Below are positions 2,195 to 16,558 of a DNA stretch of 64,000 bases, in pieces (the first letter of the stretch is position 1; the number at the start of each line of letters is the position of its first letter). Under the pieces are notes generated by a model. The model did not search any database. It was not told the DNA's origin and was given only the letters and a program-made list of their open reading frames with translations. The position numbers and the translations under genes are program-made. This DNA is from Candidatus Binatia bacterium (GTDB taxonomy: Bacteria > Desulfobacterota > Binatia > UBA9968 > CAXXLF01), in contig CAXXLF010000002.1 in NCBI GenBank assembly GCA_963664015.2, positions 224,001-288,000 of the forward strand. The letters run 5' to 3'.

Positions 2195-3148
2195 TCAGGA
2201 CTTAGGCTTATATTCGAAGTGATGGGTGGCCTGAATAATCCGAACGGTCCGTGTCTTGGATCTCATGACCACCGATTGGCTGTGCGCCCCACCAGCAAAG
2301 AAACGGATGCCACTCAAGTATTCGCCGTTGGTCACTCCGGTTGCGGCGAACATCACCTCTCCCGCCGCCAGCTCATCGATAGCATATTTTCTTTTAATAT
2401 CATTGATCCCCATAGCTTGGGCCCGTTCGATCTCTTCCGGATTTCTGGGATTCAAGCGGCCCTGCATTTCACCGCCTATGCAGCGAAGAGCCGCCGCCGC
2501 AAGAACACCTTCCGGCGCTCCCCCGGTGCCTAGCATCAAATCGATACCGGTCTCCGGTTTCGTCGTTGCGATAGCCGCTGCAACGTCCCCATCGCTGATT
2601 AGATTGATCCTTGCGCCGGCGCGGCGCACCTCTTCGATGAGGGCCTCGTGACGGGGCCGGTAGAGAATAATCACCGTGAGATCCTCGACCTTCCGTCCCT
2701 TGATCTCGGATAATAGTTTCAGGTTTTCCGTAGGGCTTTTGTCTAGATCCAGAATCCCCTTGCCCTCGGGCCCGACCACCATCTTATCCATATAGGTATC
2801 CGGGCAGTGTAGAAAATTACCCCGCTCCGCAATTGCAATAACCGATAGGGCGCTGGGACCTCCGTTGGCACAGATGGATGTCCCCTCTAAAGGGTCCACG
2901 GCGATGTCGACCTCGGGACCCGTACCGTCCCCGACCGTCTCACCGATATAAAGCATCGGCGCCTCGTCCCTCTCCCCTTCCCCTATGACCACCGTCCCTC
3001 GCACGGACACACCATCGAAGGCCTGGCGCATGGCGTCCACCGCGGCCTGGTCGGCGGCCTTCTCATCGCCTTTGCCCAAATAGCGTGCAGAAGCGAGGGC
3101 AGCGGCCTCAGTTATACGAACAACTTCTAAGGCTAGGTTTCGATCCAT
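2195..3148 (-). CDS. glpX: Class II fructose-1,6-bisphosphatase
   Basis: RITEAAA, VVIGEGERDEAPMLYIGE, DPLEGT, DGDV and GGAPEGV motifs. Confidence 0.96.
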   Translation of the reverse strand: MDRNLALEVVRITEAAALASARYLGKGDEKAADQAAVDAMRQAFDGVSVRGTVVIGEGERDEAPMLYIGETVGDGTGPEVDIAVDPLEGTSICANGGPSALSVIAIAERGNFLHCPDTYMDKMVVGPEGKGILDLDKSPTENLKLLSEIKGRKVEDLTVIILYRPRHEALIEEVRRAGARINLISDGDVAAAIATTKPETGIDLMLGTGGAPEGVLAAAALRCIGGEMQGRLNPRNPEEIERAQAMGINDIKRKYAIDELAAGEVMFAATGVTNGEYLSGIRFFAGGAHSQSVVMRSKTRTVRIIQATHHFEYKPKS

Positions 3149-4353
3149 ACTTTGCTTCCTTCAATGAGCCCCTCGATGAGCCTGTGGGCGTCTTTGACAA
3201 CCACACCGCTCGTTTGTGCGTCCCGCTCGTTAAAACCGAATGGCCTAGGAGTCGATTCCGCGGTGGAGGAATAGAGTACAAACGGCACCGGTCCCATGGC
3301 ATGGGTCTTCAGGGCAACGGGAGTCGCGTGGTCTGGCAACAGAAGAAGCCTCCACTCATCCCAGTGCTGCATCCCCTCGATCATGGTCCCTACCACCTTT
3401 TCATCAAAGGACTCGATGGCCTTCACCTTCTCCTCAGCGTTTCCCATGTGGCCAGCCTCATCGGGGGCCTCCACGTGGATAAAGATCAAGTCTGTTTGAT
3501 TTAACGCGTCGAGCCCGTAGTCGGCCTTCCCCTTATAATTGGTGTCAAGAAAACCCGTAATTCCTGGGACCGCGATCCGTTCGAGTCCGGCGTATACACC
3601 CAGCCCGCGGACAAGATCAACGGCTGATATCACGGCTCCATTGATTCCAAACCGATCCTGCAATGACGACAGTTGTGGGGCCTTCCCCTGCCCCCACAGC
3701 CAGATGGAGGTTGCCTTTCTGTCACCCCTCTCTTCCCGTCTACGATTGACCGGGTGGCGGGCCAAAAACTTCCTGGAAGATTCCATGAGCTGACGGAGAA
3801 AGTCGGCGCCATCTCCCCGGGGCAGATGAGGTTCCGTCTCTCGGTCTGTGATGTCATGGGGTGGTGTGGTCTCCATCTCCTCTTTGCCATTGCGCCAAAC
3901 CATCAGGTGGCGATAGCTCACTCCCGGATGAAACTCCACGCCGTAGCTATCCAGGTGGCGTCCAAGATCCTCGATCACCTCTGCCGCCTCTTCACTGGAG
4001 ATATGCCCGGCGGCAAAGTCCTCCATAATGTGTCCGCTTCCCTGCTCTTTCAATGTCACCAGATTGCACCGGAAGGCCACGTCGTTGCTGCCCAGGGCCA
4101 CTCCCATACTGGCCGCTTCAAGGGGGGCGCGACCTGTGTAGTGCTTCCTTGGATCGTAACCAAGGATGCTCAGGTTTCCCACGTCGCTGCCCGGCGGCAA
4201 GCCCTCTGGAATGGTATAGGCAAGTCCGAAATCCCCGTTTGCCGCAAGCCAATCCATGTGGGGTGTCTTCGCCGCCTCAAGCGGGGTTTTATCGCCCAAA
4301 CTCTCTATGGGGAAATCGGCCATACCGTCCCCCTGGAGAATCACAAATTTCAT
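3133..4353 (-). CDS. apgM: Archaeal-type cofactor-independent phosphoglycerate mutase (ApgM family)
   Basis: GDGMAD, TPLEAAKTP, PGSDV, YTGRAPLEA, HVEAPDEAGH and PDHATP motifs. Confidence 0.92.
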   Translation of the reverse strand: MKFVILQGDGMADFPIESLGDKTPLEAAKTPHMDWLAANGDFGLAYTIPEGLPPGSDVGNLSILGYDPRKHYTGRAPLEAASMGVALGSNDVAFRCNLVTLKEQGSGHIMEDFAAGHISSEEAAEVIEDLGRHLDSYGVEFHPGVSYRHLMVWRNGKEEMETTPPHDITDRETEPHLPRGDGADFLRQLMESSRKFLARHPVNRRREERGDRKATSIWLWGQGKAPQLSSLQDRFGINGAVISAVDLVRGLGVYAGLERIAVPGITGFLDTNYKGKADYGLDALNQTDLIFIHVEAPDEAGHMGNAEEKVKAIESFDEKVVGTMIEGMQHWDEWRLLLLPDHATPVALKTHAMGPVPFVLYSSTAESTPRPFGFNERDAQTSGVVVKDAHRLIEGLIEGSKVWIET

Positions 4354-4379
4354 TCAGCCTGCCATTCTATCCTTATGAA

Positions 4380-5774
4380 TTACTGATTCCCCCAAATAGG
4401 GATCCACATGGGCTCAACCAGGATAAAGTCCTTCTTGCGAATAATTTCCAGGGCTTCTTGTAGCTGGCCTACCTTTGTCCGTTCCAGGGTAATCACAAAG
4501 GGGAGAAGGTTTCCAGTCTTCGCCCTGAGTCGGTAGCCAACTGCCAAACTTTTCAGCTCTTCTCGTGTGTGGTTCAACTGCCAGATCTCCGCGATATGAA
4601 TGCTTTTTTCACCGAAAACTCGGCAGATATCGCCGACGATTCCGCTTTGATTCTTGACAACGAACCGCACATAAAAATCACCCTGGATTTGGTCCTTGGG
4701 CAGAACCCGCAGGTCGCCGCGAGTGATCAGCGGCCCACCCGTGCCCTGAACCGTGGTGCTTATAGAGAATACGTCGCCGAGCACCGCGATGGCCGTAGGA
4801 CCTCCGCCGGCTCCAGGGCCAATAAACCCATAGTTCCAGTCCTGTTCATCGCCGTTGTCCATTCCTTGGCGGCTTCGCTTTCCATTGAAGCATACCGCGT
4901 TGGTAACGCCATCGACGGTAGCTAAAAAATGATTTTTCGGCACGAGAACCGGGGCAACAAAAGCCTGTACGGCACTACCGTTTTCCCGTGCCACCGCAAG
5001 GTGTTTGATCGTTCCCGAGCCTTTGCTCTGGGCATACTGGAAGTCGATGGGATGGATCGCCTCTATTCCTTTGCGAAGGATCATGCCCGACTCAAGCTGC
5101 AAGCCGAAGGTTACGGCCCCCAGGAGAATCAACTTGGCCTCCGAGTCTTTCCCGCTGATATCGGCCTCCGGGTTGGTCTCCGCATACCCAAGCTCCTGCG
5201 CCTCACGCAGCGCTTCCCCGTATGATTTGCCGCTAGACCTCATGGCCGACAGAATGTAATTGCATGTCCCGTTGACGATCCCGTAAACGGATTGAGGCTC
5301 CTCGGCCGACAGGCTCTGCTGCAGGGAACGGATAATGGGGATTCCCCCTCCCACGCAGGCTTCGAATCCGATGGCCTGTCCATGTCGCCTGGCGGCGGCC
5401 CATATCTCAGCACTGAATTTAGCCAGGACCGCCTTATCTGAAGTGACAACGGACTTTCCGCCCTCCATCGCACGAATCAGGTAGCCTTTAAAAACTGACA
5501 GGTCCTTTTCCTGTTGCGCTCCCAGGACTTCTACCACGATGTCGACGTCCGGGTGATCGATTACCTCGTTAGCCTTCGTGGTAAATAGGGACGGATACTT
5601 GCGGAACCATTTTTTTCCCTTGGGATGACGGGTATAGATCTTTACGATCTCAACCGTCACTTCCGTCTTGGCTTCGAGCCGACCCTCGAAGACGAAGGTT
5701 TGCACCGCCTCTCCGACGGTCCCAGAACCCAACAAGCCGATCCTGATTGATTTTCTTTTTCTCGAGGGACTCAT
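4380..5774 (-). CDS. hom: Homoserine dehydrogenase with C-terminal ACT domain
   Basis: [49 protein letters not shown] and GPGAG motifs. C-terminal ACT-like [11 protein letters not shown]. Confidence 0.93.
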
Positions 5775-6964
5775 GGTGTACGGGATTTTTCCGTATATTT
5801 ACTCAGAGCCCGGCGTATGGTCCGAACCGCCTGACGCGTTCGGTGTTCGTTTTCGATGAGGGCGAAGCGAACAAAGTCGTCCCCGTATTCCCCGAATCCC
5901 ACTCCTGGAGAGACCGCCACCTTGGCTTCTTCCAACAGGTACTTGGAAAAATCCACGGATCCCATGTGGCTGCAGGGTTGAGGAATTCGTGCCCAGACAA
6001 ACATGGTCGCCTTGGGCTTGGGAATCTCCCAGCCCACCCGTGCGAGTCCATCCACCAGGGCATCCCGCCGTTTGCGATAGGTCTCCCGGACCTCCTCCAC
6101 ACAATCTTGCGGGCCGTTCAGCGCATGAATCGCTGCGATCTGGACAGGCTGAAAAATGCCGTAGTCAAAGTAGCTCTTGATCCGCGCCAAGGCATTGATC
6201 ATCTCCTGGTTTCCCACGCCAAAACCCACACGCCAGCCCGGCATGTTATAGCTCTTTGACAATGAGTAGAATTCCACGCCCACGTCCTTGGCGCCCGGGA
6301 CCTGAAGTAAACTGGGCGGTTGATACCCATCGAATGTCAGGTCCGCATAGGCCAGATCATGGATCACTAGAAGCCCGTGTTCCTTGGCAAACTTGACGAT
6401 GCGCTCGAAAAAGTCGAGATCTACCACCTCTGTGGTCGGGTTGTGAGGAAAATTTAAAATGAGCAGCTTTGGTTTGGGCCACGTCTGCTTGATCGCTTCT
6501 TGCAAATGGAAGAAGAAGCTCTCACTGGAGTGCAGTGGAATACTGCGAAGATCCCCGCCAGCAATGATGACCGAATACTGATGAATGGGATAGGTCGGAC
6601 TCGGGCAAAAGACCACGTCGCCCGGGTCCAGAATGGCCAGAACGAGATGCCCCAGACCTTCCTTCGAACCAAGGGTGACAATGGCCTCCGTGTCCGGATC
6701 CAGGCTGACCTGAAAGCGATTTTTGTACCAATCGGTGATTGCCAATCGTAACTTATAGATTCCCCTGGAGACCGAGTAACGATGGTTGGGTGATTTCTTG
6801 GCCGCCTCAATCAGTTTATCGACGATATGGGGCGGACTCGGTTGGTCCGGATTACCCATCCCGAAATCAACGATATCCTCCCCGCGACGTCGCGCCTCAT
6901 ACTTCAAATCATTGATTATGTTAAAGACGTAGGGGGGGAGTCTGTTTATTCTGTTGAACTCCAC
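5771..6964 (-). CDS. alaC: PLP-dependent class I/II aminotransferase (AlaC / LL-DAP aminotransferase family)
   Basis: [32 protein letters not shown] and [14 protein letters not shown] motifs. 4-bp ATGA overlap with hom. Confidence 0.85.
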
Positions 6965-6980
6965 ACTCTTTACCTCAGAA

Positions 6981-7085
6981 CAATAGTTTTCAGCATTCAG
7001 CTTTCTAGCAATAGTCCATTAGTTGCTATGAGCAGTCATATTAATACAAAAGGATTTCTCTTCTTCCTGCTGAAAACTGATTGCT
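6981..7085. repeat. Intergenic imperfect inverted repeat with short heptamer-like units
   Basis: agttttcagca (~6985-6995) is complementary to tgctgaaaact (7068-7078). Units such as cagcatt/cagcttt. Confidence 0.4.
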
Positions 7086-7192
7086 ACGTGTCGTAAGCTA
7101 CCTATTTTATAAGCTATACTCTCCTTCGGTGCAAACCAGGCGTGTCCAACCTCATTCGAAGATTGGATTCAGCAACGGTCGAACACTCCTAA

Positions 7193-9394
7193 CTAACCCA
7201 TGCGACCGAGTTCGAGTTTATCTCCCCAACGATGTTTCAGCACCTCTCTTAAACCCCTGGATGCTTGACTTCGCAAAGAGGGATCGCGGGAAAGCCAATC
7301 CAGGGCTTCCCGTCGTGCTGCCATGAGGAGCTTGGCGTCTCGTGCAATATCGGCTAGCCGAAAGTCCGGTAGACCCGATTGCCGGGTACCCAGAACCTCG
7401 CCGGGTCCTCTAAGCTGCAGATCGATTTCCGAAATCTTGAATCCGTCCTGTAGTTTTTCTATGGCACGAAGTCTTTTCGCGGCTTCGGGACTCTGCCCCC
7501 CGTATTGCACGAGCAGGCACTGGGAGGGATCCTTGCCCCTTCCAACTCGACCCCGCAATTGATGCAATTGAGACAAACCGAATCGCTCGGCATGCTCCAC
7601 GACCATCACCGTAGCCTTAGGAACATCGATGCCGACTTCAATGACCGTGGTCGCCACCAGGATTTGAAGTTTACCTTCCTTGAAACGCCGCATGACCTCG
7701 TCCCGCTCCTCCGCTGCCATCCTTCCGTGTACCAACCCAACCTGGAACTCCTTGAACACGACCCGTGAAAACTCCTCGGCCATTCCAGTAGCGTCCTTTA
7801 ACGGAAGGCGCTCGGAACTCTCTACCAATGGATAAACAATATAGGCCTGGCGTCCCTGGCGGACTTCCGAGCGCACAATCTGGTAAACGGAAGATCGTTC
7901 CCCCTCTCGAAATAGCCTGGTTCGGATCGGGGTCCGGCCCGGAGGCATCTCGTCAAGGGCCGACACTTCGATATCTCCGTAAAGAACCATCGCGAGGCTT
8001 CTGGGAATGGGCGTGGCCGTCATGAGCAGGATATCGGGGGGAGGAAGCGATGGGGTCGTGGTCCTTCTCCAACTTGAGAGCCGTTTAAGGGCGACCCGTT
8101 GGGCCACACCAAAACGGTGCTGCTCATCGATGATTCCCAGCCCCATTCGGGGAATAGACACTCCCTCTTGGATCAGCGCATGGGTCCCAACGACAAAGGA
8201 TATCTCACCACGAGAGATGCGGTCGAGGGTTTCCCTTTTTTGCTGGGCCGGCAAAGAACCGACGAGTAGGACGCACGTAACTTTCAACTTATCGGCAAAA
8301 CCTTTGAGATTGTGGAAGTGCTGGGCGGCTAGAAGCTCTGTTGGAGCCATGAGGGCTGCCTGAAAACCGTTTTCAATGGCCCTTAGTGCGGCAAACCAGG
8401 CGACGATGGTCTTACCCGATCCGACGTCTCCCTGCACCAACCGGAGCATGGGGTGCGGGGCCTCCATGTCGCTACCGATCTCCTTCAAGACCCGTTGCTG
8501 TGCCCCAGTCAAGCGGAAAGGAGTCAAGGCAAGCATCGTCCTGATCAATGGGCCCGTTGATCTTGAAAAGGAGAGTCCTTTTTCTGCCGTTCGTCGCTTT
8601 CTCTGCAACTCCATTCCCAACTGCAGGTAAAAAAACTCGTCAAAGATAATGGAACGATGGGCCTGTGAACGGAAGTCGTTTAAGGCCAATAAGTCGGAGC
8701 CCGTATCGGGGTGGTGGATCTCGGTGAGGGCCTGTTTCAAATCCGTTATGCGTTGACGGGTGGTAATCTCTTTGGGTAAATAACTCGGAAGAAAATCGCA
8801 ATAGGCACTTAACGCCTGGGGAACCCATTGTCGGAGCATTCCCATGGGGATCCCGCCCGGTCGCAAGTAGACTGGAAGAATCCGCTCCCTCGCGTCCTGA
8901 TCCCCCAACTCGACGGCCTCGAATTCGGGATGGGCGATTCTTAACTCCTTCCCTTTGCCACGGTCGACCTTCCCGTGCACCATGAAGTCCTGGCCGAGCT
9001 TCAGGCGGTTTACAATGTAGGGCTTGGGATAGAACCATATGAGCCCGAGTTCTCCAGTACCGTCATCCAACCGTGCCGTAAGGATCTGGCGCCTTCCCTT
9101 CTGAACCGTTTTTTTTTCCAGATCCACCAGGGTGCCGATAAAAGACTCCTCGTGCCCCATGACGGCGTCGCGAATCTTTTTAGTTTTACGGCGGTCTTCA
9201 TAGCGAAAGGGAAGATGATAGAGAAGGTCCTCTACAGTGCCGAGGCCCAAGCCTTCCAGGACTAAAGCTCGGGTCGGTCCGACGCCTTTTATAAATCGAA
9301 TGGAGGTCTGCAGTGAATGCCAGCACTCACGGGGATGATAGGAACAGCCCAGGTAAGGATGTTGCTCGCGGGGGGTAGTATCCAACGAACTCAT
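7193..9394 (-). CDS. recG: ATP-dependent DNA helicase RecG
   Basis: IKGVGP, PFRYEDR, wedge/OB domain, [26 protein letters not shown] and QLRGRVGRG motifs. Confidence 0.97.
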
Positions 9395-12300
9395 GCAAGC
9401 TTATTTCGAACCCTATTGTGGGCCATACCCAGGTAGTCCTGCAGCGCTTGAACTTCCAGCCCATGGGATCGCAGTAGACTGATTCCTTCAATCGCCGCAC
9501 CCGCACCCGACATGGTTGTGAAATAGGGCACCATAAAGTCCAAGGCACTCCGACGAATATAATAGGAATCCGCTTGGGAGTGCGTATCGGTGGGGGTATT
9601 GATGACCATCGCCACTTCGCCGCGCTGTATGGCATCGGCGATATGGGGACTTCCCTCCTGAATCTTATTAACCACATCGGAAGGTATTTTCTGCTGGTGA
9701 AAACTCGCCGCCGTACCCTTGCTAGCGATGAGTTGAAACCCCATGTCGTAGAGCTTCCTGGCAATGGCGGTCGCCTTCTCCTTGTGCTCGTCGCGGACGC
9801 TGATAAACACCTTTCCTTCCAGAGGCAAGCGCATGCCGCTGCCCAGTTGGGCTTTCGCAAAGGCCCGTCCAAATGATGTATCGATCCCCATAACTTCACC
9901 GGTTGACTTCATTTCGGGCCCGAGAAGGGTATCCACGCCGGGAAATTTATTGAAGGGGAAAACCGCCTCTTTAACGGAAATGTGTGCTGGAAAGACCTCC
10001 TCGGTCACACCCAGTTCCCTCAGGCTTTTTCCACCTATAATTCTTGCAGCCAACTTGGCCAACGGCAGACCGACGGCTTTGCTGACGAAGGGAACCGTAC
10101 GAGAAGCCCGGGGATTAACCTCCAAGATAAGGACCTCGCGATCTTTGACCGCAAATTGGACGTTCATCAGTCCCTTCACCTTGAGGGCCCGGGCGAGAGC
10201 CCGGGTCTGGCGTCGGATCTCCTCTTGGATCAAACCATCAATCGAGTAGGGGGGCAGAGCGCAGGCACTATCACCCGAGTGAATTCCGGCTCTCTCTATA
10301 TGTTCCATGATCCCGCCGATGATGACTCGCTCCCCGTCACAGAGGGCATCGACGTCCACTTCCACAGCGTCATCGAGAAACTTGTCGATCAGGACCGGAT
10401 GCTCCGGTGACGCCGCCACCGCGTTTAACACGTAAAGCCTCAGATCATCCTGGTCGTAAACGATATCCATGGCCCGACCCCCGAGGACATAGGAGGGGCG
10501 CACCAGGACTGGGTATCCAATCTGGTTAGCAATCTCCAAAGCCTGCTCATACGAACGGGCGGTTCCGCTCACCGGTTGTTTCAGACCGAGGCGGTTGAGG
10601 AGATCTCTAAATCTGTCCCGATTCTCAGCGAGGTCGATACTGTCTGGCGACGTCCCGATCAACTGTACTCCGGCCTTTTCCAGGGCGAGGGCCAATCTCA
10701 GCGGCGTTTGACCGCCGAACTGGACGATGACGCCGTCGGGTCGTTCCACGTCCGTAATATTCAGGACGTCTTCAAGTGTCAGCGGTTCGAAGTAGAGCTT
10801 GTCTGAAGTGTCGTAGTCGGTGCTAACGGTTTCGGGATTGCAGTTCACCATGATAGTTTCGTAACCGTCTTCCTTTAGTGCAAAGGCAGCGTGTACGCAG
10901 CAGTAGTCGAATTCGATGCCCTGGCCAATCCGATTCGGCCCCCCTCCCAAGATCATAATTTTCTTACGACTGGTTCGATTGGACTCGTCCTCTCCTTCAT
11001 AGCTGGAGTACAGGTAAGGGGTATAGGCGGCAAATTCAGCGGCGCAGGTATCGACTGTCTTGAACCCGGCGCGGATCCCCTTCTCTATCCTAACGGCACG
11101 GACCTCATCCTCGTGCCGGCCCATGAGGAAAGCCATCCGGCGGTCGGAAAAACCCATCTCCTTGGCACGGAGAAGCAATTTGTAGGTGACGGCCCCCCAC
11201 TCTTTCCCGGCACGGCGAAGCTCCTCTTCCATGGTTACAATCTGCCGGATGTGCTCCAGAAACCAGGGATCGATCTTGGCTAGTTCATGGACCTCTTCCA
11301 CAGACATTCCCATTCGGAAGGCATCGGCCAGAAACCACAACCGCTGGGCATTTGGGGTGGTCAATTTTTCGCGTATCAGGGCCTGGTTGTGTTGATCCTT
11401 ACCGGGTTCGCGGTTTACCTTCTCCTCGAAACCATAATTTCCTATCTCCAAGGAACGGATAGCCTTGTGTAGGGATTCCTTGAAAGTGCGCCCGATGGCC
11501 ATAGCCTCACCCACGGATTTCATCTGCGTGGTGAGGATATCCCTGGCCTGGGGAAACTTCTCAAAGGTAAAACGCGGTATTTTTACCACGACGTAATCAA
11601 TGGTCGGTTCAAAGCATGCGGGCGTTTCCCGCGTGATATCATTTGGGATTTCGTCCAGGGTGTAACCCACTGCTAGCTTGGCCGCTATTTTGGCAATAGG
11701 GAACCCAGTTGCCTTGCTGGCGAGGGCCGAACTGCGGGACACTCGCGGGTTCATCTCAATGACAACCAAACGTCCGTCTCCCGGATGCACGGCAAACTGG
11801 ACATTGGAGCCTCCCGTATCCACGCCGATCTCACGGATGATTTTTAATGTTGCGTCACGCATCAACTGGTACTCTTTATCCGTAAGGGTTTGAGCCGGGG
11901 CTACAGTGATAGAGTCCCCCGTATGGACTCCCATGGGATCAAAGTTTTCGATGGTGCATACGATGACGACGTTGTCCTTGTGGTCTCGCATCACCTCCAG
12001 TTCGAACTCTTTCCAACCCAAAACCGATTCTTCGACGAGAAGCTCGTGGACGGGAGAAAGCTTCAAGCCCGAGGAAACTAGCTCGCTGAAATCCTCCGGT
12101 CCGTAGGCAATGCTTCCACCGCTCCCCCCCAGGGTACGTGAGGGGCGGAGAATCACCGGGAATCCGAGCTCCCGTTGAATTGCCTCCGCTTCCTTAACGC
12201 TGTGCGCGCATCCGCTTAGCGGTACATTCAGACCTGCTTTTTGAATGGCATTTTTAAACAGGGCCCGGTCTTCCGCCTTCTTGATGGATTCCAACTTGGC

Positions 12301-12651
12301 CCCGATCATCTCGACGCCATATCGCTCCAGGATCCCATTGTCGGCCAGATCGATAGCGAGGTTTAGAGCCGTTTGCCCTCCGATGGTCGGCAGCAGGGCG
12401 TCAGGGCGTTCCTTACTTATGATCTTCTCGGCCATGTCCAGGGTGATGGGCTCAATGTAGGTTCGATCGGCAAAGTCCGGGTCGGTCATGATTGTTGCAG
12501 GATTGGAGTTGATCAGGATTACACGGTACCCCTCTTCTTTGAGTGCTTTGAGGGCCTGGGTACCGGAATAATCAAATTCGCAGGCCTGTCCGATGACAAT
12601 CGGCCCGGATCCTATAACAAGGATAGTTTTTATATCTGTTCGCTTGGGCAT
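9391..12651 (-). CDS. carB: Carbamoyl-phosphate synthase large subunit
   Basis: MPKRTDI start, [17 protein letters not shown], two ATP-grasp halves and a C-terminal MGS domain. 1086 aa. Confidence 0.99.
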
Positions 12652-12751: not shown

Positions 12752-13876
12752 TTACTGTTCTAAAGGTTTCCCTTTCATTAACTCCAGGAACCTACGAAAG
12801 AGATAGCTTGCGTCATGGGGACCAGGAGAGGACTCAGGGTGATACTGGACTGAAAATATGGGTAGATCCTTGTGAGCCAATCCCTCCACCGTGCAGTCAT
12901 TTAAGTTGACATGGGTAACCATGGCTGTCCCTTCCAACGAATGGGCATCCAAAGCAAATCCGTGGTTCTGTACGGTAATCTCTACTTTCCGGGTTGTAAG
13001 ATCCATGACCGGTTGATTGCCGCCATGATGGCCGAATTTGAGCTTAAAGGTCGTGCCCCCTAGGGCCAGGCCGAGTATCTGGTGGCCCAAACAAATACCG
13101 AAAATGGGTTTCTTGCCGATGAGCTTACCCACAATCTCTCTTGCATAGGGTACCGCATCGGGATCACCGGGACCGTTGGAGAGGAAGATGCCGTCGGGAT
13201 TCCACCCAAGGACTTCCTCCGCCGGTGTCGATGCCGGGACCACATTGACCCGACACCCCGACTCGACAAGATTCCTGAGAATCGTGCTTTTGATTCCGTA
13301 GTCATAGGCAACCACAAAGAAATCCGAACGTTGTGCGTAGGGGTACCCCTTGCCTAACTCCCAGGTCCCATTTTCCCAGACGTAGGGCGACTGACAGGTC
13401 ACTTCCCGAACCAGATCCCTTCCCACGAGGCCGGGAGAGGCCTTGGCCATAGCAACGAGTTCTTCCGAACTGCGATCGAGTGTCGAGATGATCCCCTCCT
13501 GGGCACCATGATCTCGAATATGTCGGACCAGTGAGCGAGTATCGATTTCTTCAATGCCCACAATCCCGTGCTCACCCATATACTCATGCAACGGTCGGGC
13601 GGATCTCCAGCTACTGGGGATAGGGCAGTACTCCTTAACGATAAATCCGCCCATAAAGGGTTTCCGAGACTCGACGTCTTCTAAATTGACACCCACATTA
13701 CCGATCTCCGGACAGGTCATGGCCACCATCTGTCCCTGGTAGGAAGGGTCCGTGAGTATCTCCTGGTAGCCGGTCATGCTCGTATTGAAGACGACCTCAC
13801 CTCGTGCCTCCCCCTCACCGCCAAAAGACCGCCCCGTATAGGTCCGCCCATCAGCCAATGCCAGCATCGCCTTCAT
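12752..13876 (-). CDS. carA: Carbamoyl-phosphate synthase small subunit
   Basis: [28 protein letters not shown] and QYHPE motifs. Confidence 0.99.
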
Positions 13877-15831
13877 CTGACAACGTTATCCTTACCGGGC
13901 TTCGTTGGATTGATGAGCGAATAGATAACCACTTTGTCCCGTTCCCCCTTTTCGACCTCCCGGAGTTTAACTCGAACCCTTTCCCGTTGCGAACTGGGAA
14001 TATTCTTGCCGATGTAGTTAGGCTTGACCGGAACCTCTCGATGGCCCCGATCAATCAAGACGGCCAGACGTACCGATTCTGGGCGGCCGGATTTGAAAAC
14101 TATACTGAGCGCTCTCTTCACGGTTCTGCCCGTATGGATCACGTCATCGACAAGCACGACGGAGCGACCCTGGAGGTTAATTGGCGCACCGTCGGAATCC
14201 ATTATGGAAGGCCCCGATGGTTCCTCGCCCGTGGCACTATAGACCTCAACCTCCCCCATTTCGATATTTCGCCCCTCACGCTCCTCCATCCGTGCGGCAA
14301 CCCGCTTGGCAATGTATACTCCCTTGGTGCGTATGCCGAGCACAAGTAGACGGTTCAAGTCCTTTGTCTCGCTCTGGATTTCCTCGGTCATTTTATCGAT
14401 AGCTGCCTGGATTTCACTTTCGTCCATAACGCTACGTTGAGGTCCGCTCTTATAGGGTTCATACCCCAGCTCTTCGGCCTGTTTGATGGAGTCGAATACG
14501 GAAAGCTCGCCGAGCCCGATCCAACTACGCGCGGTTTCCTCGAGCATGAGGTCGTAGGAACAATACCGTTTGGATTTGGAATGGCCGATGAGACGAATCT
14601 TGAGTTGATGATCACAATAGAGGCAGCGAAGGAACAGACCGCTTACCGGACTCGTAAAGAGGATCTCGAATCCAGCCTGCGTGGAGCCGGGCTCGTTGTG
14701 AGTCACACAATTGGCGTTGGTACATCGAGGGCCCGATGGTTCCGGGCTCTGGTAAAGAGCAAGCTTAACTGCCGGCCTCTTTGACTTCCCTGCGCCGAAC
14801 CGGTCCAGTAGGAATTTGATTAGCGCCATGCGAACCGGAACCCCATAGGCGGCTTGCTTGAAATAAATCCCCCGCGGGTCCTTATCGACCTCCGGGGCAA
14901 GCTCGTCCACCCGTGGCAATGGATGCATCACCAGCGTTTCCTTGAAGCCCTTGGCCTTGAGGAACCTCTCGTCAATTCTGGGGTAGTCGGATTGGCCTTC
15001 CGTTGTCTCCTGGGACCCCCGCTCCTTCTGTTGCCTCGTGACGTAGAAGGCATCCAACTTGCGCCCCGTTGCCATCTGGTTCAAACGGTTATGGATCTCC
15101 GTGTTGGCTTGGGTAAATAACGCTAGTTGATGGGGTTGACTGGGAGAAAGGTACACGGCATCTGTCGAGGTGACTACGGTTTTGAGATCGTCCGATATGA
15201 CAGGGATTGGACTATAGTGAAATTGGGTGTCCAGCCTTTCAATCACGTACTGAGGGATCTCCATCCCCGGGGCTGCCAGAATGATGACATGGGCGCCGAA
15301 TCGGGCCAGCGCGTAAACCAGCGAATGAATGGTTCGCCCGTGCTTCATATCTCCGCAGATGACCACTGTCAGACCGTTAAGTTTCCCCTTTTCTTTTCTA
15401 AGGGTATAGAGATCGCAGAGGGTTTGAGTGGGATGCTCATGGCTCCCGTCGCCGGCATTGATTATCGGGACATCGGCATGTTCCGCCATGGCTTTCACGG
15501 CGCCATCCCAATAATGCCGGATCACAAGGAGATCCGCATAACTGGACACTACCTTGGCCGTATCCGCTATGCTTTCTCCTTTAGTCGCTGACGAAGACTT
15601 CATATCGGGACAGCTGATAACGGCGCCGCCCAAGCGGTGCATGGCTGACTCGAAGGAAAGTCGAGTCCGGGTGCTGGGTTCATAGAAAAGCGTGGCCATG
15701 ATCTTTCCCATCTCCATGGTGTGTGCCACCCGCCCGGAATCGGTCGGGTTCATCTCGTCAGCCAGGGAAAAAATTTCTTCAATTTCCTGGTTGGAAAGAT
15801 CGGCAATGGTTATGAGATCCCGTCGGTCCAT
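13873..15831 (-). CDS. pyrB: Aspartate carbamoyltransferase multidomain fusion: PyrB + PyrI Zn domain + Ada-metal-binding-like module + PyrR-like PRT domain
   Basis: aa 1-345: [40 protein letters not shown]. aa ~370-407: CTNANC...CLYC. aa ~414-462: IGHSKSKRY...[16 protein letters not shown]. aa ~468-640: [27 protein letters not shown]. Confidence 0.93.
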
Positions 15832-15840
15832 TGAACTCCT

Positions 15841-16413
15841 CTAAGATTGACTCGGTGGCCGCACCTTCCGGGGCTGGTCCCCTCCCACGACAACCCGGTC
15901 GATTCCGTCCGCTTCGCGAAACAACACATTGACCCGTTGGCCCTCCGAAACGCGGACATTCTTCCCTACGATGTCTGCCTTAATGGGCAACTCCCTGTCC
16001 CCACGGTCAACCAGAACCGCGACGAGAATTTTTATCGGATTTCCCATTTGAGTGATCAGATCGAGCGCTACCCGGGTGGTCCGCCCCGTGTAGATCACAT
16101 CGTCTACTAGAAAAACGACCCGGTCATCTAGGGAAAACGGAAACGAAATAGGGGATTGGAGCCCCGTACCCACGTCTCTTGCCAGGTCGTCCCGGAATGA
16201 CGTCACATCCATACTTTCCACGGCAATTACGCTAGAATTTAAGGCTTCTATCCGTTGCGCGATCCGCTTCACCAGATAGCCGCCTCGGGTTTCGATACCC
16301 ACGACGGCGAAGTTCTGCCCTTTCTCAATCTGCTCGAGGATCTCATGGGCCATGCGGGTGATCGCCCGCTCCATATCCTCACCCTCTAAAAGGATCTCTT
16401 CTTGGTTTTCCAT
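15841..16413 (-). CDS. pyrR: Pyrimidine operon attenuation regulator / UPRTase PyrR
   Basis: RAITRMAHEILE, VGIETRG, FRDDL, VDDVIYTGRT, DRGDRELPI and VGKN motifs. Start placed at ATG 16413 because the longer ORF start falls in the terminator U-tract. Confidence 0.93.
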   Translation of the reverse strand: MENQEEILLEGEDMERAITRMAHEILEQIEKGQNFAVVGIETRGGYLVKRIAQRIEALNSSVIAVESMDVTSFRDDLARDVGTGLQSPISFPFSLDDRVVFLVDDVIYTGRTTRVALDLITQMGNPIKILVAVLVDRGDRELPIKADIVGKNVRVSEGQRVNVLFREADGIDRVVVGGDQPRKVRPPSQS

Positions 16414-16426
16414 AAATATACTAGGC

Positions 16427-16460
16427 AAAAAAAGACCCCAACGGGATTACCGCCAGGGTC
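16427..16460 (-). terminator. Intrinsic terminator (attenuator) in the pyr leader
   Basis: Minus strand reads GACCCTGGCGG-TAATC-CCGTTGGGGTC followed by a T-run, just upstream of pyrR. Confidence 0.85.
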
Positions 16461-16515
16461 ATTTTGAAGACAAGGTGAATGAATATTATAGAATTTATAC
16501 TTATGAATCATCGTA

Positions 16516-16550
16516 TCCCTTCCCAACCTCACTGGATTGGTTTTAAAGGA
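16516..16550 (-). promoter_or_regulatory. PyrR-binding RNA element (anti-antiterminator stem-loop)
   Basis: Minus strand reads TCCTTTAAAACCAATCCAGTGAGGTTGGGAAGGGA. It has the CUUUAA motif and the ARUCCNGNGAGGYU-type loop of PyrR sites, closed by a TCCTT/AGGGA stem. Confidence 0.9.
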
Positions 16551-16558
16551 CCATCATT

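Follow-up and report, generated by a model that had tools for sequence, protein, structure and literature searches.

How is aspartate carbamoyltransferase (ATCase) controlled when its chain lacks the allosteric domain of the usual regulatory partner and ends in a domain of another pathway regulator? The question is raised by a gene at positions 13873..15831 (minus strand) of the window, the stretch of 64,000 nucleotides of Candidatus Binatia bacterium contig CAXXLF010000002.1 analysed here. In this gene, an ATCase catalytic chain (PyrB) is continued, in one open reading frame (ORF), by a linker, the zinc domain of the ATCase regulatory chain PyrI, a connector and a domain resembling the regulator PyrR. 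ATCase is the textbook case of allosteric feedback, and the answer that we favour, at a probability of about 0.58, is that this fusion, the sole ATCase found in its genome, would carry in a single chain a built-in sensor of nucleotides or phosphoribosyl pyrophosphate (PRPP) anchored by the zinc domain. The gene and its parts are as follows.

13873..15831 (-): fusion gene, 652 aa (PyrB, linker, PyrI zinc domain, connector and PyrR-like phosphoribosyltransferase (PRT) domain), from the ORF list, Pfam and NCBIfam
14797..15831 (-): ATCase catalytic chain, aa 1-345, with its carbamoyl-phosphate and aspartate domains (TIGR00670)
15061..15228 (-): family-specific insertion of ~39 residues in the aspartate domain, aa ~202-257 (broken alignment to the solved chain 1ml4)
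14749..14796 (-): variable basic linker, aa 346-361 (mean pairwise identity 0.29)
14584..14748 (-): PyrI-type zinc domain, aa 362-416, with C370, C375, C403 and C406 (PyrI_C and regulatory-chain profile match)
14434..14583 (-): conserved connector, aa 417-466, a candidate Cys-depleted Ada-like module (alignment, and hhalign against true Ada domains)
13912..14433 (-): PyrR-type PRT domain, aa 467-640, with PRPP loop (NF003549 and Bacillus PyrR structures)

The four-module anatomy put forward in the original prediction was recovered by Pfam, NCBIfam and PDB profile matches, a Pfam scan returning OTCace_N, OTCace, PyrI_C and Pribosyltran in that order. Concerning the catalytic chain, TIGR00670 (asp_carb_tr) scores 301.2 bits for a cut-off of 236.95 and NF002032 295.6 bits for a cut-off of 263 (NCBIfam); in Pfam, OTCace_N covers aa 4-145 (175.2 bits) and OTCace (80.2 bits) matches in two stretches, the best being 251-340. 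Residues STRTR 53-57, K84, R105, H133, Q136, R166, R266, Q268 and L305-R307 are identical in 114/114 full-length homologues, the set to which the conservation counts given below refer unless another is named. The motifs STRTR, HPTQ, TRxQKER and HPLPR are those which we take to make up the carbamoyl-phosphate and aspartate site. The closest solved chains are those of P. abyssi (1ml4, 266 bits), M. jannaschii (2rgw, 259), plant PYRB (228), human CAD (218) and E. coli (~215), and the B. subtilis chain 2at2 reaches only 135 bits. Since the nearest solved chains are archaeal or enteric rather than that of B. subtilis, the catalytic chain is of the type normally paired with PyrI, as had been predicted.

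The alignment to 1ml4 splits into two segments (4-201 with 6-203 and 258-342 with 221-305), with ~39 residues added between 1ml4 positions 203 and 221. Part of this insertion, PHQLALFT, hardly varies: a strict pattern recovers it from 117 of 125 full-length homologues, and of the eight that are missed six carry a variant and P0118 and P0148 show none. Each of the 18 diverged loci (families f7, f116 and f9) has the motif too, as do three PRT-less proteins described further below. As the insertion co-occurs with the unit formed by the zinc domain and the connector, it may touch that unit and may serve as a docking site for the connector.

The zinc domain is the only half of PyrI that has been kept, as first proposed. 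PyrI_C (PF02748) matches aa 369-412 with 26.9 bits for a cut-off of 23.4 (Pfam), and a family profile of the region, searched against PDB, matches only ATCase regulatory chains (E. coli, Moritella, M. jannaschii and Sulfolobus), aligning to residues 108-150 of the 153 of the E. coli chain (E 5e-4). Cysteines C370, C375, C403 and C406 of the CTNANC...CLYC signature are kept in 114/114 homologues. As for the allosteric domain of PyrI (PF01948), a profile search did not find it in the genome (best score 12.1 bits, E 0.59) or in any of the 101 genomes of the window's order; the control of this search was positive in seven reference genomes. The PyrI zinc domain is not known to do anything other than dock the regulatory chain onto PyrB, and its retention in spite of the missing allosteric domain is counted in favour of a sensor anchored by it. 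The isolated PyrI zinc domain is reported to bind catalytic trimers and to alter their kinetics; if so, docking in cis would be a plausible lever on the enzyme.

The zinc-region match reaches residue 150 of 153 of the E. coli regulatory chain, so that the connector starts where that chain ends. Its C-terminal half is the most conserved stretch of the whole C-terminal region, and 17 of the 18 diverged loci (f7, f116 and f9) retain its motif in the form F[DE][ST]VKQAEExGY[EK]PY; the locus missed by the pattern (L080, f9) has FASVKQAEESGYKPY. The description of the connector as Ada-like is the weakest part of the original prediction. In the connector, Pfam gave no Ada_Zn_binding match even at E 10, a PDB profile search returned no Ada chain at E <= 10, and the ESM Atlas yielded no usable match for aa 407-468 or aa 346-652. 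PF02805 itself had no match at E <= 0.001 in the fusion-bearing genomes searched, namely the window's own (G000), four more from its family, and G291. What stood was a likeness between profiles that beats shuffled controls. Compared with six true Ada domains from related genomes, a wider alignment gave a profile-profile P of 0.0059, and an alignment restricted to the connector (120 unique sequences) gave an hhalign score of 26.3 against Ada (P 4.2e-5, probability 69.7%, 42 columns), a score reached by 0/200 column shuffles (maximum 17.0) and compared with 7.3 for the reversed profile. Over these 42 columns, the connector shares with the Ada N-terminal zinc-binding domain (PF02805) the register YC...FxxxxxAExxGxxPx, but it has no match at the level of hidden Markov models, lacks the methyl-acceptor context and keeps only one of Ada's four zinc cysteines, the first (C424, 113/114), which has no equivalent in the f116, f9 and PRT-less sequences inspected. 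The term 'Ada-like' would therefore be defensible as a fold-level lead, not as family membership.

The last module was expected to have a PyrR or uracil phosphoribosyltransferase (UPRTase) fold, and the matches agree with this. Pribosyltran covers aa 473-615 (88.4 bits, Pfam) and the PyrR model NF003549 covers aa 465-636 with 159.5 bits for a cut-off of 138; with four other NCBIfam PyrR models it stays below the cut-off (159.1 vs. 218, 144.3 vs. 230, 118.4 vs. 268 and 93 vs. 140). The domain aligns end to end with Bacillus PyrR 1a3c (residues 6-178 of 181, 139.4 bits) and is 33% identical to the free-standing PyrR encoded next to the fusion. Residues D562, D563, G568 and T570 of the PRPP loop are present in 114/114 homologues. 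The Arg of its Gly-Arg-Thr is Trp in the 18 diverged loci (L063-L080), where the loop reads VDDV[IF]N[ST]GWT, and Met in 12/114 of the closer homologues. An R..AHE signature in the helix and an RDD loop are conserved among the free PyrRs; at these columns the fused copies are variable or acidic, the one aligned to Arg27 being D or E in 111/114 fused domains. The R..AHE columns of the N-terminal helix correspond to residues reported to bind RNA (Savacool and Switzer 2002). The columns aligned to R141, R146 and K152 are kept, and the fused domains are more basic than the free PyrRs, with median isoelectric points of 8.87 (34 sequences) and 6.39 (29 sequences), respectively. In a tree of the PRT domains, the free PyrRs from these genomes group together (SH-like approximate likelihood ratio support, SH-aLRT, of 100) and so do the fused domains (86), on an unresolved backbone; four of its rows were mis-extracted (free_L027, free_L029, free_L036 and fus_L041), and no origin of the PRT domain is claimed from it.

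An intact PRPP loop also invites a catalytic explanation, in which the protein would be a bifunctional enzyme whose PyrR-like domain is an active UPRTase adding synthesis of uridine monophosphate (UMP) by salvage, with no regulation involved. PyrR proteins are indeed described as UPRTases in the part of PMC7430163 available to us, and no upp gene (PF14681) was found in the 97%-complete genome G000. Nevertheless, the adjacent free PyrR could provide this activity, the fused copy is without the RDD loop that the free copies conserve, and the retention of a zinc docking domain and a connector between two enzymes would be left unexplained, so that we consider a purely catalytic role improbable.

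Before the architecture can be given any meaning, the reading frame has to be real. The 652-aa frame is single, uninterrupted and ATG-started in the ORF list of the window, exactly as claimed, and its TGA stop overlaps the ATG of carA (ATGA, 13873-13876). In Logan contigs of X1 (12,115 bases) and X2 (14,981 bases), runs that belong to two studies, the entire ORF is present and identical to that of the window. Run X2 may be the source of the window DNA. A contig of run X4 lacks a single base at 15768 (depth 5), close to codon 22 and away from the domain junctions; X1 and X2 have this base, and its loss is probably due to faulty assembly of X4. For a seawater metagenome run (X5), the pieces recovered differ from the window ORF by substitutions only. 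Among the sequencing runs listed as holding this DNA, none was of RNA. A stop codon between the domains, which would have spoken against a fusion, appeared in neither the X1 nor the X2 contig, and the X4 lesion lies outside the domain junctions. When 4824 candidates were searched with aa 345-652, 529 proteins matched at E <= 1e-3; lengths of 620-680 aa are seen in 111 of the 120 top-scoring homologues, and 120/120 carry the CxxxxC...CxxC pattern. Because contigs of two studies carry the gene unchanged and the database holds hundreds of homologues of ~650 aa, an assembly error is unlikely to be the origin of the fusion.

The broader suspicion, that a frameshift or a misassembly joined separate pyrB, pyrI-like and pyrR genes, could draw on the short open frames of some long-read genomes (G986 and G815, with frameshifts within the PyrB part, and G174, at a contig end). 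Against it, besides the identical contigs, most of the 173 matching genomes have the connector in a frame of ~640-900 aa, the same architecture recurs in 35 species loci, and all 40 shorter database matches look like fragments or internal-Met calls. The probability of an artefact is accordingly close to nil, and this explanation is already refuted as far as sequence data allow.

Candidates for a natural split form, i.e. a stand-alone chain of zinc domain, connector and PRT domain, were rejected. The 40 shorter matches (168-538 aa) begin at an internal Met of the last PyrB helix or in mid-domain, as do the representatives P0121 and P0125 (313-327 aa), and most of them lie on contigs of 1-3 kb; the short frames of G174, G986 and G815 are explained by the contig end and the frameshifts just mentioned. 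None of these showed a split form.

The genome holds a second OTCace_N gene, which is argF (435.7 bits to the ornithine carbamoyltransferase model NF001986); the fusion is therefore the only ATCase found in G000.

Among the homologues, mean pairwise identity is 0.78 in the catalytic chain, 0.64 in the zinc domain, 0.73 in the connector and 0.70 in the PRT domain, compared with 0.29 for the linker and 0.26 for the C-terminal tail, a pattern which, judged from these alignments, is one of purifying selection on all modules with drift of linker and tail. A PRT-less relative was found in G006 (another class of the same phylum, 84% complete), as a 452-aa PyrB-zinc-connector protein (L081:2573-3979, minus strand) which ends just past the connector motif and is followed by pyrC; pyrR was not found upstream of it or anywhere in that 84%-complete genome. 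Two more such database proteins, of 459 and 461 aa, have PF02729, PF00185 and PF02748 without PF00156, the PRT-less set (P0286-P0288) coming from a word-based search that may miss others. As this form exists, the zinc domain and connector stand alone as a unit, to which the PRT domain looks like an addition.

This relative brings in another explanation, according to which the zinc domain, connector and PyrR-like domain would form a structural scaffold that assembles or stabilises a higher oligomer of catalytic trimers, with no ligand sensing. The PRT-less protein gives the zinc domain and connector a role independent of any sensor, and both the change of the loop Arg to Trp in 18/18 loci and the loss of the flexible-loop RDD motif in the fused copy are in line with a domain that does not sense. 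Such a scaffold would resemble the inactive dihydroorotase (DHOase) partner of class A ATCases: in the part of a 2015 transcarbamylase review available to us (PMC4581275), complexes with active or inactive DHOase are one of three prokaryotic quaternary types of ATCase, the others being those with PyrI, separate or fused, and bare trimers. However, the Asp-Asp...Gly-x-Thr core of the PRPP loop, which a scaffold would not need, is invariant in 114/114 homologues and kept in all 18 diverged loci, and the PRT domain is as well conserved as the zinc domain (0.70 vs. 0.64). A scaffold without sensing is, on balance, unlikely.

The genes and sites next to the fusion bear on what its last domain does, and are listed here.

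15841..16428 (-): free-standing canonical pyrR, 195-aa ORF (NF003549, 178.4 bits)
16426..16553 (-): PyrR-binding leader RNA with terminator hairpin (RF00515)
12752..13876 (-): carA, downstream of the fusion (Pfam GATase and CPSase_sm_chain)
9391..12651 (-): carB, downstream of carA (ORF list)

The start listed for pyrR is a TTG at 16428, inside a T-run, and the ATG at 16413 is likelier. Directly upstream of it, RF00515 matches with 51.9 bits (gathering score 54; E 5e-5), with an 11-pair terminator hairpin (16434-16460) followed by a T7 run. The leader carries the loop AAUCCAGUGAGGUU, and the published PyrR-binding consensus, in the part of PMC7430163 available to us, is ARUCCAGAGAGGYU. Upstream of the free pyrR, RF00515 matches were found in 8/8 related loci tested (44-56 bits, two of them over the gathering score). 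Of the 35 closer species loci, 34 have the free pyrR ahead of the fusion (for L036 there is no upstream DNA) and 34 have carA after it (L041 ends early); pyrC lies outside the operon there and in the window. The order pyrR, fusion, pyrC, carA is found in the 18 loci of f7, f116 and f9, with carA seen in 16 since two contigs end first. The free pyrR beside the fusion (34/35 and 18/18 loci), together with the leader RNA, suggests a division of labour between the two copies and is counted in favour of a sensor built into the enzyme. As a separate observation, G000 shows no UPRTase candidate other than its two PyrR-type proteins.

The constant pairing of the paralogues can be read in another way: the fused domain might still bind the pyr leader RNA, or form mixed dimers with the free PyrR, so that the enzyme would titrate the attenuation machinery or report to it. 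In the available part of PMC7430163, PyrR works as a dimer and its RNA binding involves a basic concave surface, and the fused domain, for its part, is basic and has retained the R141, R146 and K152 columns. However, the N-terminal-helix residues of the free PyrRs are not conserved in the fused copy, and fused and free copies are only 33% identical; such cross-talk is thus quite improbable in our estimation.

In the reading that we favour, the zinc domain would dock on the catalytic trimer in the fashion of class B ATCases, and the PyrR-like domain would bind a phosphoribosyl ligand through its intact PRPP loop. Likely ligands would be those known for PyrR, i.e. UMP or uridine triphosphate (UTP) against guanosine mono- or triphosphate (GMP or GTP), or else PRPP. 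Occupancy of the site, probably with dimerisation of the PyrR type, would be passed on through the connector and the zinc domain to ATCase activity. One nucleotide pool would then be sensed by both paralogues, with the enzyme under the control of the fused copy and attenuation of operon transcription under that of the free PyrR. PyrR acts as a UMP-bound dimer whose RNA binding is countered by GMP, according to the part of PMC7430163 available to us. This antagonism of uridine and guanosine nucleotides would mirror another one. In E. coli ATCase, it is CTP and ATP that are antagonists.

Several points weigh against a built-in sensor. The PRT domain lies C-terminal of the zinc domain, on the opposite side from the N-terminal allosteric domain of PyrI, so that the proposed coupling path is without precedent. 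The existence of the PRT-less form means that the sensor would be dispensable in at least one lineage. With the loop Arg changed to Trp in 18/18 loci or to Met in 12/114, the ligand site is not uniform across the family. The higher isoelectric point of the fused domain runs counter to a simple loss of RNA binding and, together with the kept R141, R146 and K152 columns, leaves room for RNA binding by the fused domain, just as the absence of upp from the genome leaves room for a catalytic UPRTase role. Concerning the earlier idea that the allosteric domain had been replaced by a PyrR-derived sensor, the loss of PF01948 and the presence of a PyrR-like domain agree with it; 'replaced' is too simple a word, given the other side of the zinc domain and the PRT-less form.

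A bolder version combines these elements. The PyrR-derived domain, mounted on the PyrI zinc domain and the Ada-like connector, would confer allostery by uridine vs. guanosine nucleotides (or PRPP), and mixed dimers with the free PyrR would in addition feed the amount and ligand state of the enzyme into attenuation of its own operon, which would make it a fourth kind of prokaryotic ATCase holoenzyme. We grant this combination only a very slim chance.

Compared with class B ATCases (E. coli and archaea; PyrB6-PyrI6), the window protein has the same type of catalytic chain (215-266 bits to E. coli, P. abyssi and M. jannaschii) and a homologous zinc domain with its four cysteines (E. coli regulatory chain 108-150). 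It differs in being a single polypeptide without the PF01948 domain, in the connector and PyrR-type domain placed after the zinc domain, and in the catalytic insertion of ~39 aa. Catalytic and regulatory parts are also joined in one chain in the fused PyrBI of Thermotoga maritima (NF009916; Chen et al. 1998, cited as reference 6 in the available part of PMC4581275), but that protein carries the whole of PyrI, allosteric and zinc domains alike. A fusion of the Thermotoga type was accordingly rejected, the window protein scoring 91.1 bits for an NF009916 cut-off of 800 and being without the allosteric domain.

As for Bacillus PyrR (1a3c and 1non), the likeness extends over a full-length sequence match (139 bits), the kept PRPP loop and a score over one NCBIfam PyrR cut-off. 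Unlike it, the window domain is fused to an enzyme and lacks the helix residues and RDD loop of free PyrRs, and the window genome encodes a separate bona fide PyrR, with its RNA site, upstream. Class A ATCases (Pseudomonas and Aquifex) also recruit a protein of the same pathway as non-catalytic or accessory partner of the trimer (PMC4581275, in the part available to us); their partner is a DHOase on a separate chain, their catalytic chain is of another type and they have no zinc domain.

In searches of the main full text of papers, no paper describing a PyrB-zinc-connector-PyrR architecture was found, and the part of the 2015 transcarbamylase review available to us (PMC4581275) never mentions PyrR or phosphoribosyl. 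The architecture probably represents a mode of control of this textbook enzyme that has not been described before. Newly seen here are its restriction to 5/20 sampled families of the class, the PRT-less PyrB-zinc-connector relative and the shared catalytic insertion. Databases label these proteins aspartate carbamoyltransferase or, for fragments, pyrimidine operon attenuation protein. If true, a built-in sensor would represent a natural experiment, in which the docking half of a regulatory chain was kept and its sensing half swapped for the domain of another pathway regulator, and would test the modularity of allosteric coupling through the zinc domain; one ligand-binding fold, that of PyrR, would then serve control at both the RNA and the enzyme level within the same operon. 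The PRT-less relative and the shared catalytic insertion provide ready comparison constructs.

The 35 loci holding the gene are GTDB species loci, with record titles that are mostly Candidatus Binatia or 'Deltaproteobacteria' metagenome-assembled genomes, one of which shares its GTDB family with the window genome. The zinc-connector module was found in 9/401 genomes of a phylum sample and in 173/401 genomes of a class sample. Eight of the 173 are genomes flagged as unpublished (G931, G983, G941, G679, G805, G936, G964 and G800), without which the count is 165/393. The positive families of the class sample are f1 (3/3), f2 (56/64), f7 (93/94), f116 (19/19) and f9 (1/1), and the module was found in 0/219 genomes of the other 15 families, so that the architecture is confined to 5/20 sampled families of the class and is a trait of particular families rather than of the phylum as a whole.

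In five genomes from negative families, PyrI was not found, and each of them holds one PyrR over the cut-off. In four of these (G076, G110, G143 and G038), pyrR adjoins a short pyrB, 40-44% identical to the window PyrB; in the fifth (G623, family f113), pyrB was not found. Family f113 belongs to the window's own order, and two of its complete single-contig genomes, G623 and G657, show one OTCace_N gene each, that of G623 (L085) adjoining an argD-like gene and carrying ornithine-type motifs. With PF02729, no ATCase was found in G623 or G657, and G721 has two genes.

Downstream of carB, the region 2195-9394 (minus strand) holds common housekeeping genes, for a recG-like helicase, a class I/II aminotransferase, a homoserine dehydrogenase, a cofactor-independent phosphoglycerate mutase and a glpX-type fructose bisphosphatase (Pfam).

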